From: Eledone cirrhosa
Taxonomy: Eukaryota
Assembly: GCA_964016885.1 (NCBI GenBank)
Contig: OZ024747.1
Span: 7,812,001-7,876,000 of the forward strand
Direction of reading: 5' to 3'
Length of the DNA stretch: 64,000 nt
A program made the position numbers and the translations under genes. Shown here piece after piece: positions 17,730 to 25,693 of this stretch. Positions within the stretch are counted from its first letter, which is position 1. Each line of letters begins with the position of its first letter. Under the pieces are notes generated by a model that saw nothing but the letters and a program-made list of their open reading frames with translations, ran no database searches and had not been told where the DNA came from.

Positions 17730-18309
17730 ACATGTATCCCAGTACAACCTGTCCCATGGTCGGGTCGTTGGCGACTAAACTGGCAACCCCACCAAGGTTT
17801 CTTGGTGAGGAGGGTGACTTTGGACATCCTGCAGGACTAAAAACAAAACCTGTCAAAGGGCAAAGGAGCTCTTAAGAGTCAATGGCCATCCAAAATCACC
17901 GGGAGAGATGACCCCTTAGCCTTTGTCAAGGCAGAATTCTAGGAGAAGGAAAACTCTGATATAACACCTGCAACCCTGATGGTATCCAATGATGTTGACT
18001 TGTTCTTCTTTTTGGTAAATATCATCTTGGTTAAGAGAGTGGGACTGGCTTTGTGCAGTGCCTTTGCTCACTATAAAAGCTTCACGGCACAGGCATTGCT
18101 TAATATCTGGAGATCTCTCTGCACTTGTCGTCACATGGTACCATGGGCCCAGCACTATGTGTCAGTAATTGTCACAAGTGTAGTGTTTGTACCAGAGTTT
18201 TCAAGTCGCTGGCTGGACTAAAAAGTCACACTCGTTCAGCGCATCGGTAGGGGTTCTCCTACATGGATATAAAGTAGTGGCCGTACTCGAAAACGAGTTG
18301 GCAGCCACC
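17730..18309 (+). mobile_element. non-autonomous bipartite RTE derivative (5'UTR + last zinc finger + 3' end)
   Basis: 17895-18099 aligns to LINE 21545-21767; 18179-18250 encodes [23 protein letters not shown], similar to the LINE's last finger; 18277-18309 matches the LINE 3' terminus; flanked by (TA/TG)n on both sides. Confidence 0.88.
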
Positions 18310-18957
18310 ATATATGTATGTATATATATGTATGTATATATATGTATGTATATATGTGTATGTATGTATATATGTGTATATATATGTATGTATATATGTG
18401 TATATGTATATATATGTATATATATATATATTTGTGTATGTATGTATATATATATATGTATGTATGTATATATGTGTATATATATATATATTTGTGTATG
18501 TATGTATATATGTGTGTGTATATATATATATATATGTGTATGTATGTATATATGTGTATATGTATATGTATGTATGTGTATGTATGTATGTATGTATGTA
18601 TGTATGTGTATGTATGTATGTATGTATGTATATATATATGTATGTATGTATATGTGTATATATATATGTGTATATATATATGTATATGTGTATATATATA
18701 TGTGTATATATATATGTATATGTGTATATGTATATGTGTATATATATATGTGTATATATATATGTGTATATGTATATGTGCATATATATATATGTGTATA
18801 TATATATATATGTATATGTATGTGTATATATGTATGTGTATATATGTATGTGTATATATGTATGTGTATATATATATGTGTATATATATGTATGTATATA
18901 TATATATATATATGTATGTATATATATATATATATATATATGTATGTATATATATAT

Positions 18958-19292
18958 AACTTTGAATAACTTTGAAATGTTTTGGCCAGTATTGGCCCAG
19001 GCCATGTCTAACTTAATAGCACCACCTGGCGAAGTCTTTCAATTCAGGATTTGGGCACCATGGCCCATTCGAGAAGAGAATTACTGTTTGCGGAGACATA
19101 TCCGGGTGTGGGTGGTTTGTCCGGGATTACTTGGAGGAATTTGTCCAAAGACTTCTTGAATTTTGTGTGGTCAGTTTCTGTTTTGACGTGTCCTGGTGTG
19201 ATGTTGAAGAGAGCAGGGCCGATTGAGGTGAAATAATTGTGCCGTATTGTTGTTATGAGTTGCGATTTAGATTTTTGAATGGGACGGATAGC
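18958..19292 (-). mobile_element. 5'-truncated CR1/L2-group LINE 3' end
   Basis: Minus strand encodes ...[23 protein letters not shown]...[32 protein letters not shown]...*, typical of a CR1-group ORF2 C-terminus; short 3'UTR ends in two TTCAAAGTTA repeats then (TA)n. Confidence 0.75.
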
Positions 19293-21493: not shown

Positions 21494-24400
21494 GCGCGGG
21501 GACATAGAAATAATCGGGCTGGATGCCCGATCGCGCAGTTAAACCACTGGGAGTGAAGAACCCCTAGCCCATGTCAGGGTATTCTTCTAGGAGAAGGCAT
21601 CTCAGGAAACTGGGTTAACTCCGATATAAAACCTGCGGCTCAGTAGTTACCGATGATGTTGATCTTTTCTTCTTTTCGGGTTATAGCTACTGTCGCTCAG
21701 AGAGTGGGATTGGTTCAGTGCACAGTCTTTCCTCACTTTAAAAATATTCGTCACGCACAGGCATTGCACGAGTGCATTAATAATTATTAATAGTGTAGTA
21801 TTATTATTATTATTATTATTATTATTACTATTATTATTACTTTTTTTTTTTTTTTTTTTTTTTCTCCCTTTTTTTTTTTTCCAATTCAATGATGTTCCAG
21901 AACAATGTAAACGAGATAATTGCCAATTTGGGTTCTGGAACAAAAAAGATCATTGGCAATAAGGGCAGGGGCCCCAAGTTATCACAACCTGGGCCCGCCC
22001 GTCATCGTGCCATTGTAATAGAGCCAAACAGGGCATTTAGTCTTGGCTGCTGGAACGTACGGACGCTGCTTGACAGGGATTCTTTGGAGCGTCCTGAACG
22101 AAGGACCGCTCTTGTTGCGAAGGAGCTTCGACGTTACGATCTTGACATCGTGGCTTTGTCTGAGACGAGGTTAGCTGGAGATGGTCATCTTACGGAATTT
22201 TGTGGAGAATATACATTCTTCTGGAAAGGAAGAGATGAAGGAACCAGAAGAGAGGCTGGGGTAGGATTTGCTGTTAAGACTGTACTGGTGAATAAATTGG
22301 AAGAATTCCCAGTGGGGATTAGTGAGCGTCTTATGTCCATGAGAGTTCCGCTGGACAAGGGAAGATATGCTACCCTGGTGAGTGTGTATGCTCCAACTAT
22401 GAATTCTGTCGATGAAGAAAAACTGTCCTTTTACCATGCCTTGAAAGGTGTTTTAAGAAATATCCCTCAGGCAGACAAAGTCATCGTGCTTGGTGACTTT
22501 AATGCTAGAGTGGGTAGGGATTTTAACACATGGAATGTAATCGGAAGGCATGGGGTGGGAAAGTGTAACAGCAATGGTATGCTCTTGCTGCAGATGTGTG
22601 AGGAGCTGGATCTGTGTGTTACCAACACCATGTTCCAACAAAAGAACAAATTCAAGACCACATGGATGCATCCTGCATCTAAGGAATGGCATCTTTTGGA
22701 CTACGTCCTAGTCAGGATGCGTGACAGACAGGATGTGCGGTGTGTTCGTGTTCTTCGTGGAGCTGAGTGCTGGACGGACCACCGCCTGGTACGCGCAAAA
22801 GTGAATCTAATCACCAAACGTAAAATCCGGGCTCCTGGTGTTACCCTGCCCAAAAGATTGAATGCTGCTCGTCTTAAGGATAAAAATGTGAAGAGGACAT
22901 TGGAAGAAGAGATGCAGGCTGCAGATCTTGGTGAGGATTGGCCGACCCTTAAAAAGTCGGTTTATGATGTAGGCAGACGTGTTCTGGGATTGGTGCAGAG
23001 AAAACATCAGGACTGGTTTAATGAGAAAGATGTGCATATAGATGACTTGTTGGCTGATAAGAGGCGCGCTCTGTCACGCTACTTGACGGCAAGACCACAG
23101 GAGAGGAATACGTTGCATGAGGAGCTCAGGGATGTGAAATCACGTGTTAGGCGGAGTCTTTCTCAGATGAAGGATCAGTGGTGGAGTGAGAAGGCTGGTG
23201 AGATACAAACTGCGTCTGATTGCAATAACACAAAGCTGTTGTACAGTCTCTTGCGTGAGGTTTATGGACCGTCTTCTTCTCTGGTGACACCGATTCGCAG
23301 CAGGGATGGCAAAGAACTTCTTCGTGACTCACAGGGAATTCTACGAAGGTGGCGGGAGCACTTTGATGATCTTTTGAATCAGCCGTCTGTCGTCAGTGAA
23401 GATTTCCTCAATCTCATTCCGGAAAGTCCTGTGAAAGTAGCTCTCGCAGAGCCTCCGACACTTGTGGAGGTTGCAGTGGCTATTTCGAAGCTGAACAGTG
23501 GAAGATCTCCAGGTATGGATGGCATACATGCTGAGCTCCTACAATATGGTGGTGAGAGACTCCTGCAACATCTTCACTCTCTGTTTGGAAGGATATGGGC
23601 TAATGAATCCGTGCCTGAGGACTGGAGAGATGCAGTAATGGTGGTCTTGTACAAGGGAAAGGGTAACAGGAATGATTGTGGGAACTACAGAGGTATATCA
23701 TTGCTTTCTGTCGTGGGGAAAGTTTTATGTAGGGTGCTTCTGGACCGTCTGCTGACACACATTGCAGATTGTGTCCTTCCTGAAAGTCAATCTGGTTTTC
23801 GTGTTGGACGCGGCACTACTGATATGATCTTCTCAGCTAGACAGCTCCAGGAGAAGTGCATTGAACAGGGCTTGGATCTGTATCAGGTTTTTGTCGATCT
23901 GACAAAGGCTTTCGATACTGTCAACAGAGATGCATTATGGAAGGTTCTCCAGAAACTTGGTTGCCCTGATAAGTTCCTTGCTTTAGTTAGGTCTTTCCAT
24001 GACGACATGAAGGCTTGGGTTAATGTCGGAGGTAACATGTCGGAGCCTATCTCAGTAAAAAATGGAGTGAAACAGGGGGATATTCCAGCACCGACCCTGT
24101 TTGCCATATACTTTGCAATGGTTTTCTGTATTGCATTCAGGAATTGCGAGCATGGTGTTTACATCCGATATCGAACCTCAGGCAGCATATTTAACATCAG
24201 GCGCTTTGCTGCGAAGACAAAAGTATTTACATCAGTCATAAGAGACCTCTTGTATGCAGATGATTGCGATCTTGTAGCGCACACAGAGAGTGATATGCAG
24301 CACATTTTGAATGTATTTTCTGACGCTTGCACTGCCCTGGGTTTGACTGTCAGTCTCAAGAAAACCGTCGTCATGTACCAACCTGCACCTGGTAGGCAGT

Positions 24401-25693
24401 ACACTGAACCAAACATCTATGTGTATGGCAAACGACTTGGAGTGGTTGATCAGTTTGTCTACCTGGGAAGCACTGTCAATCGATACGGCAACCTTGACAG
24501 TGAAATCTCACTTAGGATTAGGAAAGCAAGTGATGCTTTCGGAAAGCTAGAAAGGCGACTCTGGGGTCGGCGAGACATATGCAGGAGGACAAAGGTAAGG
24601 GTGTACAGGGCATGTGTACTCTCTTGTCTTCTTTATGCCTGCGAGACCTGGGTCACATATCGACGCCACCTTAAGCAATTGGAGCGTTTCCATCAGATGT
24701 GTCTCAGACGGATACATGGCGTTCGCTGGAGGGACCACATCAGTGATGTCGAGATTTTGGAAAGCTCTATGTGTGACAGTATAGAAGCTCTTGTGCTTAA
24801 GCAGCGACTCCGTTGGAGTGGTCACCTTGCCGGGATGAAGGATTCTAGAATACCAAAACAACTCTTCTATGGAGAGTTGGTTAAAGGAAAACGACCGCCA
24901 CATAAACCAAAAAAGAGGTATAAGGATTCCTTGAAGGCCTCTCTGAAAGACGCTAACATCTCTGCTGATACATGGGAAAATATTGCTGCTGATCGTAATA
25001 AATGGAGAAAGACTGTATATGAGGGAAAAGTTGCCTTTGAGGCATCTCGAATCGCACACGAGAAAGTAAAGCGGGACGTGAGGAAGGGTATTGCTGTTGC
25101 ACTTCCAGACGGCGAGGGTCCTCCTATGTTTCTGACATGCAGCGTCTGTGCGAGACTCTGCCTAAGCAAAGCTGGACTCGAAAGTCATCTTCGCAGTCAT
25201 AAAGTAAGACCAGTGGTTGACTACCAGGCTGCTGTTGGAGATGCTACTCATCATGCTTGCCAAACATGTGGTAGAGAATGTAAATCAGCAGGAGGACTCA
25301 AGCGACATGCAAAAGTACACGAACTCCAACCACAGCCGACTATTCCCAGTAAATGTTTTGGTTGCCGACTCTGTGCAAGACATTTTGGATCATTGGCTGG
25401 GCTAAAAAGCCACATTCGATCGCAGCACTGTTAGTTGCTATCGTGTGTTTGTGTGTGTGTGTGTGTGTGTGTGTAGATATGCTTATGTGCGTGCGTGTGT
25501 GTGTATATATATATGAATATGTATATTATTATTGTTGTTGTCGTTATTATTATTATTGCTATTATTATTATTATTATTATTATTATTATTATTATTATTA
25601 TTATTATTATTATTATTATTATTATTATTATTTTTTTTTTTTTTTTTTTTTTATTGTGCAATGGCCATACTCGATAACGAGGGGGCAGCCATC
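21494..25693 (+). mobile_element. apparently full-length RTE non-LTR retrotransposon, sense to host gene
   Basis: 5'UTR with CTAGGAGAAGG...AACTCCGAT motif of RTE 5'UTR type; intact ORF; 3'UTR with (GT)n, (TTA)n, polyT and terminal stem-loop 25661-25692 running straight into (TA)n. 5' boundary uncertain (could extend to ~21345 or ~20586). Confidence 0.88.
21889..25434 (+). CDS. RTE-clade LINE ORF: APE endonuclease + reverse transcriptase + three C2H2 zinc fingers
   Basis: Uninterrupted 1181 aa. APE motifs [39 protein letters not shown] motifs [32 protein letters not shown] (24253-24264), YLG; RTE-type RLRWSGHL...[11 protein letters not shown]; fingers at 25138-25200, 25258-25320, 25363-25428. 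Confidence 0.96.

Follow-up and report, generated by a model that had tools for sequence, protein, structure and literature searches.

Why do short, non-coding relatives of RTE retrotransposons keep sequence from both ends of the parent element? The question is raised by two neighboring elements in a 64,000-nucleotide stretch of the Eledone cirrhosa genome (GenBank assembly GCA_964016885.1, contig OZ024747.1, positions 7,812,001 to 7,876,000), which is called the window here. Positions below are those of the window unless a locus is named. One element is a long interspersed element (LINE) and the other is a short bipartite element.

17730..18310, + strand: non-autonomous RTE element of bipartite type, from a sister family of the window LINE, with a 5' truncation of about 28 nt
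20584..25693, + strand: young RTE-type LINE, a 5'-truncated copy; the family 5' untranslated region (UTR) begins 1198 nt upstream of 21500

An earlier note on this DNA, made from the sequence alone, had proposed that the two elements share a 5'UTR RNA structure. Here we report that the shared region comprises two modules, domain A and domain B, and that domain B is a real structure, widespread among the RTEs sampled. Its predicted form is a hairpin plus a pseudoknot, conserved as an element of the RTE 5'UTR. The strand directly 3' of the pseudoknot (X) is complementary to a 3'UTR strand of the same element (Y), which lies immediately ahead of the terminal hairpin.

A conserved fold in the RTE 5'UTR

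The two modules lie in the window as follows.

17900..17962, + strand: region 5' of domain B in the short element, with a motif also found in OegopSINE and RTE-3_BF in the accessible part of the PMC5786205 supplement
17963..18093, + strand: domain B of the short element (P2 17972-18032; P3 18038-18043/18067-18072; pseudoknot 18052-18056/18087-18091)
21545..21627, + strand: domain A of the LINE, whose GGAG/CTCC loop contains an inserted GNRA hairpin (21601-21614)
21628..21761, + strand: domain B of the LINE (P2 21637-21697; P3 21703-21708/21732-21737; pseudoknot 21718-21721/21755-21758)

Domain A, consisting of GCC/GGC and GGAG/CTCY hairpins, stands upstream of domain B in some families only. 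Domain B contains, in order, YTGC, the long hairpin P2, an AGAG linker, a hairpin of P3 and P4, the loop NYRCAA, and a WTAA linker. A 3' strand follows, and its pairing with the NYRCAA loop forms an H-type pseudoknot. P3 mostly carries a 2x2 pyrimidine loop, and the apex of P2 carries a U·C mismatch.

Copies within the genome are too similar for a covariation test, so we took 80 related loci from metagenomes via protein alignment. Three duplicates (L091, L092, and L141) were excluded from all analyses. The covariance model was applied to these metagenome loci, and the family diversity inside the source genome is therefore undersampled. Domain B was present in 24 of the 77 metagenome loci searched, many of these loci lacking a 5'UTR. 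Twenty-two of the 24 were training sequences, and two (L129 and L096) were new, found by the model though it was not trained on them.

In a sequence-only MAFFT alignment of 25 RTE families, 75.4% of the alignment cells at predicted pairs were paired, compared to 63.8% after shuffling and 38 to 48% in controls with slid partners. Covariation was 0.386 versus 0.198 in shuffles, and none of 500 shuffles reached the observed value of any measure, in agreement with the earlier claim that the helices are kept by differing sequences. Two-sided changes occurred at 28 of the 35 pairs. A model-fitted alignment of 28 sequences raised the paired fraction to 81.4%, a value biased towards the model. A tree-aware test of individual pairs gave one significant pair (in P3) on the MAFFT alignment. 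On the model-fitted alignment two pairs passed E<0.05, and the top five were all predicted ones. The two central pseudoknot pairs, which are absent from the model, ranked 7th and 10th of 8701 and were not individually significant.

Two results weigh against this fold: few single pairs are significant in the tree-aware test, and the strand test for domain B is modest, with 75 GU versus 48 AC cells. RNAalifold recovered P3 alone from the MAFFT alignment. Single-sequence folding found neither window region to be more stable than shuffles (z = +0.62 and +0.35); the support for the fold is therefore comparative. This lack of excess stability is what would be expected if the helices were chance pairings or neutral remnants of common ancestry. 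Such an origin is contradicted by the two-sided changes across families, the covariation, the permutation tests described below, and the finding of L129 and L096, and we regard it as extremely improbable.

All the motifs given in the earlier note stand at the positions it stated, including motif (i) at 17919-17932 and 21567-21580, motif (ii) at 17978-18026 and 21641-21692, motif (iii) (AGTGGG/CTCACT) at 18038-18072 and 21703-21737, and the GNRA insert in the LINE. The proposed GTGC:GCAC pseudoknot has all four pairs in 17 of 27 families, and its single pairs occur in 20 to 25 of the 27. The segment described as a near-invariant loop does contain a U that is invariant in 25 of 27 families, but rather than an open loop it continues the helix as a stack interrupted by pyrimidine mismatches. 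This apical stack of P2 comprises a bulge, a G-C pair, a mismatch between pyrimidines at the U just mentioned, and a C-G pair; at its two pairs the window elements have A-U and G-C. The long-range helix (iv), CCTG/CAGG, can form in both window elements but is complete in just 8 of 27 families, and in 22 of 27 the CT of CCTG pairs instead with the AG of AGAGAG. For the suggested TTCTTCT:AGGAGAAG pseudoknot, both window elements offer 9 bp, and all five other families that have both parts offer just 4 to 6 bp. On this family comparison, we rejected helix (iv) and the TTCTTCT:AGGAGAAG pseudoknot as general features; they may still have a role in particular lineages. The broader proposal of a selected cis-acting RNA domain in the RTE 5'UTR is borne out by helices that covary across families. 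The note could not fit the fold to the HDV-like or twister class, and Rfam gave no match: a scan of 17000-26500 was flooded by microRNA matches to microsatellites, and narrower searches returned none for domain A or B.

We also dropped a reading of UGGGA as resembling a termination upstream ribosome-binding site, since the UGGGA strand covaries as a stem. A distant RTE subgroup (L096:606-734, L129:3638-3767, L097, L103, and L104) has the same architecture in different sequence, with a G-rich P3 and a pseudoknot of 4 to 6 bp; L097, L103, and L104 were judged by eye.

Complementarity between the two ends

The strands X and Y were absent from the earlier note. In the two window elements they consist of different bases.

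18094..18107, + strand: strand X of the short element (complement at 18266-18279); rank 1 of 22
18266..18310, + strand: 3'UTR of the short element, with strand Y (18266-18279), terminal hairpin (18286-18297), and GGCAGCCA end
21762..21769, + strand: strand X of the LINE; its complement, 25656-25663, lies at a distance of 3.9 kb
25656..25693, + strand: 3' end of the LINE, with strand Y (25656-25663), terminal hairpin (25670-25681), and GGCAGCCA, followed by (TA)n

We tested X:Y pairing in 22 families with both ends, namely 19 metagenome LINEs, the two window elements, and L146. Eight loci without a 3' end or a linked open reading frame (ORF) were excluded (L069, L085, L089, L106, L127, L129, L142, and L143). 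Cognate strands had a mean duplex energy of -17.2 kcal/mol, compared to -12.9 ± 0.6 kcal/mol for permuted strands, and a gapless score of 19.9 compared to 14.8 ± 0.6; in both cases none of 100,000 permutations reached the cognate value. Perfect Watson-Crick runs of at least 7 bp occurred in 11 of the 22 cognate pairs but in 3.7% of non-cognate pairs. Over 20 LINEs, the 3' window ranked above windows from inside its own element (Fisher p = 4.5e-7). By gapless score, the window LINE ranked first among the 22 families and first among the 48 windows of its own element. Most of the short-element copies listed retain both strands, and in L162 and L167, derivatives of the LINE itself, X:Y had a probability near 1 in pseudoknot-free folding.

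Similar complementarity can be seen by eye in the accessible part of the PMC5786205 supplement. In WALLSI1A, WALLSI2, MonoRep87A/B, and SINE2_Gav, X:Y closes a short loop that holds the RTE5'/RTE3' junction, and in the RTE-3_AMi, RTE-11_AMi, and BovB LINEs it is kept across the ORF, over 3 to 3.6 kb. BovA2/BovB, SINE-1_Pmo, and SINE2-1_EC have an X:Y-like complementarity behind a different upstream block.

Other observations count against the helix. Nested single-sequence folding gave X:Y a probability of about 0 to 0.01 in the short family, where forcing it costs 3.2 kcal/mol, and a probability of 0 in L146. When the whole LINE was folded, X:Y came out 7.5 kcal/mol worse than a (GT)n alternative. 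The complementarity is weak or missing in L064, L080, L097, and L087 (the L087 contig ends early), and L068 ranks 14th of 22. The strand test barely separates GU from AC (8.05 versus 7.91). In addition, the idea came from the window elements and a data preview before testing, the Y window of L103 was placed by eye, and short interspersed elements (SINEs) with domain A alone (Ceph type) exist and carry other tails.

In the short family, the minimum free energy (MFE) fold has an alternative at 18055-18099, a long hairpin in which the 3' strand of P4/P3 is paired with the pseudoknot strand and X. This hairpin and the conserved fold are mutually exclusive, and it is not possible in the LINE.

A possible reverse transcriptase loading signal

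We think that domain B and the X:Y clasp probably form a composite signal for loading reverse transcriptase (RT). In this model, the X:Y helix would form in vivo and clasp both ends of the RNA, bringing the 3' terminal hairpin next to the pseudoknot and the hairpin with the U·C apex. The RTE protein would recognize the composite template for target-primed reverse transcription (TPRT), with both halves needed. If a template requires 5' and 3' parts, viable deletion derivatives would be bipartite and would have their breakpoint within the loop of X:Y; such deletions would also be favored by the clasp itself. We infer a loading role because the 3' strand of domain B runs into a helix ending at the terminal hairpin, and the RT of stringent LINEs usually recognizes such hairpins (PMC6007223, in part). 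The 11 Protein Data Bank matches (L1, R2, and group II intron RT) include no solved structure of an RTE protein.

Bipartite non-coding derivatives retain both halves of the proposed signal. Non-coding SINEs with a tRNA head keep domain B, and so does the window LINE, which starts at an AUG and lacks the IRES-like (internal ribosome entry site) block found in other RTEs. Domain B is also internal: of 30 LINE loci, 23 continue at least 200 nt upstream of 21500 and 11 continue at least 1150 nt. The internal position, the retention in non-coding and tRNA-headed SINEs, and the survival in a changed translation context argue against roles in cleavage, as a promoter, or as the main IRES. Of the three functions offered in the earlier note (translation initiation, RT loading, and self-cleavage), RT loading fits these data best and self-cleavage fits worst.

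A role in translation is an unlikely alternative. Domain B and X:Y would then act as a closed-loop enhancer or as part of an IRES for an RTE RNA without cap or poly(A), and derivatives would keep them for ribosome association or by hitch-hiking. The location in the 5'UTR fits this explanation, and pairing of 5' and 3' ends supports translation in some RNA viruses. HDV-like ribozymes of non-LTR (long terminal repeat) elements have been proposed to be IRES-like (PMC6765202, in part). However, non-coding SINEs retain domain B, and in most families it lies several hundred nucleotides upstream of a separate, ORF-abutting block that resembles a start-positioning element. It persists in the window LINE, where an AUG replaces that block. 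No Rfam IRES family gave a covariance-model match for the domain.

X:Y could alternatively serve as a full-length check or junction aid. It would keep the 5' part close to the site of priming, to help completion, synthesis of the second strand, or protection of the RNA, and bipartite elements would arise only because RT skips the loop. We judge this explanation to be quite unlikely. Breakpoints do fall in the X:Y loop, as expected from an RT jump; however, many LINE copies are 5'-variable upstream of domain B, and the keeping of the whole domain in independent SINEs suggests more than deletion bias.

A self-cleaving ribozyme of an uncharacterized type, freeing the element RNA, is very improbable. 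The compact pseudoknotted fold and its invariant unpaired bases would suit one, and ribozymes are present in some RTEs (accessible parts of PMC5786205 and PMC8501958), but domain B is not at the element 5' end: short copies begin about 260 nt upstream of it, LINE loci extend beyond it as described above, and tRNA-headed SINEs keep their heads. Rfam models of self-cleaving ribozymes (HDV-like, twister, and others) did not match the domain, and hand-fitting it to the HDV-like and twister topologies failed.

The window LINE, the short element, and their surroundings

The remaining features of the two elements are listed here.

17728..17759, + strand: 3' remnant of a head resembling class 1a exoribonuclease-resistant RNA (xrRNA), with the P3 loop, P1 3' strand, and predicted partner of pseudoknot 2 (PK2)
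18170..18250, + strand: remnant of the parent ORF (last C2H2 zinc finger and stop codon), with a translation matching the LINE C terminus
21889..25434, + strand: single intact ORF of 1181 aa with APE endonuclease, reverse transcriptase, and C2H2 fingers; AUG start

The window LINE has marks of the RTE clade, namely a single ORF with APE endonuclease and RT, and a short 3'UTR ending in a hairpin and a microsatellite. The metagenome protein matches included no labelled RTE reference proteins. Its domains A and B match, by eye, RTE-labelled sequences in the accessible part of the PMC5786205 supplement. Over 21500-21790, all 40 scored matches (among 2310 candidates in the 3.0-Gb genome) were 100% identical. 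The short element joins a 5'UTR part to the last zinc finger of the parent ORF and a LINE 3' end, the rest of the ORF being deleted, and is present in many copies. The 40 copies scored were 94 to 100% identical. Copies have common ends within microsatellite flanks, and full-length ones measure about 609 nt.

The homology between 17895-18099 and 21545-21767 put forward in the earlier note is clear (68.6% identity over 229 nt, BLASTN E = 3.5e-21), but the two elements are not the direct autonomous/non-autonomous pair that it proposed. The bipartite derivative that belongs to the LINE is found at other places in the genome (L162/L167/L172); it is 94.2% identical over the domain (L162) and has the same 3' end. 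Because the window elements are only 68.6% identical and this closer derivative exists, we treat them as sister families. L162, L167, L172, and L051 (upstream part) contain a head, the A/B domain, and an AT-rich hairpin linking X and Y.

At its 5' end the young LINE is extended by 1.2 kb of low-complexity sequence (20584-21495) that lacks an xrRNA-like head, which suggests a 5' switch. Some copies (L031 and L035) carry inverted pieces of the extension. Like most fetched copies, both window elements lie within long (TA)n/(TATG)n arrays (17000-17729, 18311-20583, and 25694 onward), and elements are often nested in or adjoin one another (L007, L018, L061, and L172). A SINE in the flanks appears to be of a cephalopod kind. 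A non-repetitive island on the minus strand (18960-19295) has a translation resembling the 3' end of another LINE-like ORF. Farther away, 8 kb at 42001-50000 with about 47% GC and an extreme AT skew (-0.5 to -0.64) are probably a satellite.

An xrRNA-like head and a pre-ORF pseudoknot

The head, also absent from the earlier note, is common to several RTE families of the source genome (2982 candidates; for example, L013:1473-1540 and L061:1506-1570). The window short copy has its 3' half only, and the young LINE family begins with a different sequence. Full-length short copies, found at 19 of the 30 loci, start with GTCAGG, as do 28 of 30 loci from a second set of families. Target site duplications end directly before the G of GTCAGG in L063, L145, L158, and L168, and in L181 the GTCAGG head leads into a decayed RTE ORF.

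The first 65 nt of the head align in register with the Rfam family Flavivirus_SLIV (RF01415), far under the cut-off: scores were 18.3 to 29.6 bits, compared to a gathering score of 54.5, and sub-cut-off matches also occurred in 7 of 14 control genomes. A descriptor search of the 80 metagenome loci found one more head, in L097 (one match in 0.64 Mb versus one in 1.9 Mb of random control). A second copy was found there by eye, so that this metagenome RTE has two in tandem.

L097, 90-165 and 255-350: head copies

All four head variants have the three-way junction and a single C between P2 and P3; their stems have changed and the junction is in the MFE fold. The U-A-U triple bases are present and the PK2 strands complementary in all four, as judged by eye in these four sequences. 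We took the hallmarks of subclass 1a xrRNAs from PMC8374639, which in its accessible part describes cellular xrRNA as uncharacterized as of 2021; the RTE head may be a candidate for that cellular xrRNA.

Other RTEs (L066:760-900, L077, L078, L081, L090, L102, and others, also L061) have a conserved block before the ORF that is absent from the window LINE. At its end is a covarying hairpin, and a GCGGT downstream pairs with the hairpin loop. The reading frame begins directly after this pseudoknot in 15 of the 17 loci scored (one match, L143, is on a loop copy), and an in-frame ATG occurs there in just 1 of 17. Rfam returned no match for the block, which we take to resemble pseudoknot I of the intergenic region (IGR) IRES.

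A wider possibility, which we advance tentatively and with less confidence than the loading signal, is that RTEs use a virus-like RNA toolkit. A cyclization helix would build a clade-wide RT-loading structure, a flavivirus-type xrRNA encoded in a cellular genome would set the 5' end through exonuclease trimming in place of a ribozyme, and an IGR-IRES-like pseudoknot would start the ORF without an AUG in many families.

Comparison with known systems

Short complementary strands link the RNA ends in the cyclization sequences of RNA viruses and of LTR retroelements (e.g., HIV-1). X and Y would join ends in a similar way, here in a TPRT element.

The conserved RTE 5'UTR block and bipartite RTE elements were reported by Kojima 2018 (PMC5786205), and domains A and B correspond to the RTE5' parts aligned there (OegopSINE, WALLSI, MonoRep87, RTE-3_AMi, RTE-1_MD, and RTE-3_PM). 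The accessible part of that paper treats sequence similarity and speculates on binding of transcriptional regulators, whereas it gives no fold, pseudoknot, or 5'-3' pairing. As in the stringent LINE/SINE pairs, including RTE, of PMC6007223 (accessible part), a terminal hairpin is common to both window elements; the signal proposed here differs in adding a 5'UTR domain docked by a long-range helix. Pseudoknotted 5'UTR RNA is also known in non-LTR retrotransposons from the R2 5' pseudoknot, which is bound by the R2 protein, and from HDV-like and twister ribozymes (accessible parts of PMC6765202 and PMC8501958). Domain B differs from these in topology, internal position, absence of any sign of cleavage, and complementarity to the 3'UTR. 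The head, a putative xrRNA, resembles the flavivirus subclass 1a xrRNA (RF01415; PMC8374639, in part) in its three-way junction and single C and, as judged by eye, in its U-A-U bases and two predicted pseudoknots. Unlike the viral RNA, it stands at the extreme 5' end of a retrotransposon and scores far below the Rfam cut-off.

Conservation of the domain sequence is thus already published, while the fold and the end-to-end helix appear to be undescribed. The full-text literature available gave no account of this fold, of RTE 5'-3' pairing or a non-LTR precedent, or of a retrotransposon xrRNA, although subscription papers, patents, and parts of the PMC5786205 supplement may bear on it.

Implications for RTE elements

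RTE-1_MD, which carries domain B, has been used with both UTRs for RNA-only gene insertion (PMC13708176, in part), and the clasp model therefore bears on template design. For the retrotransposons themselves, the clasp likely explains why parasitic RTE derivatives keep both ends. A required 5'-3' helix would provide a concrete reason for this retention, and would assign a structure to sequence blocks that SINEs retain across hosts from molluscs to marsupials.

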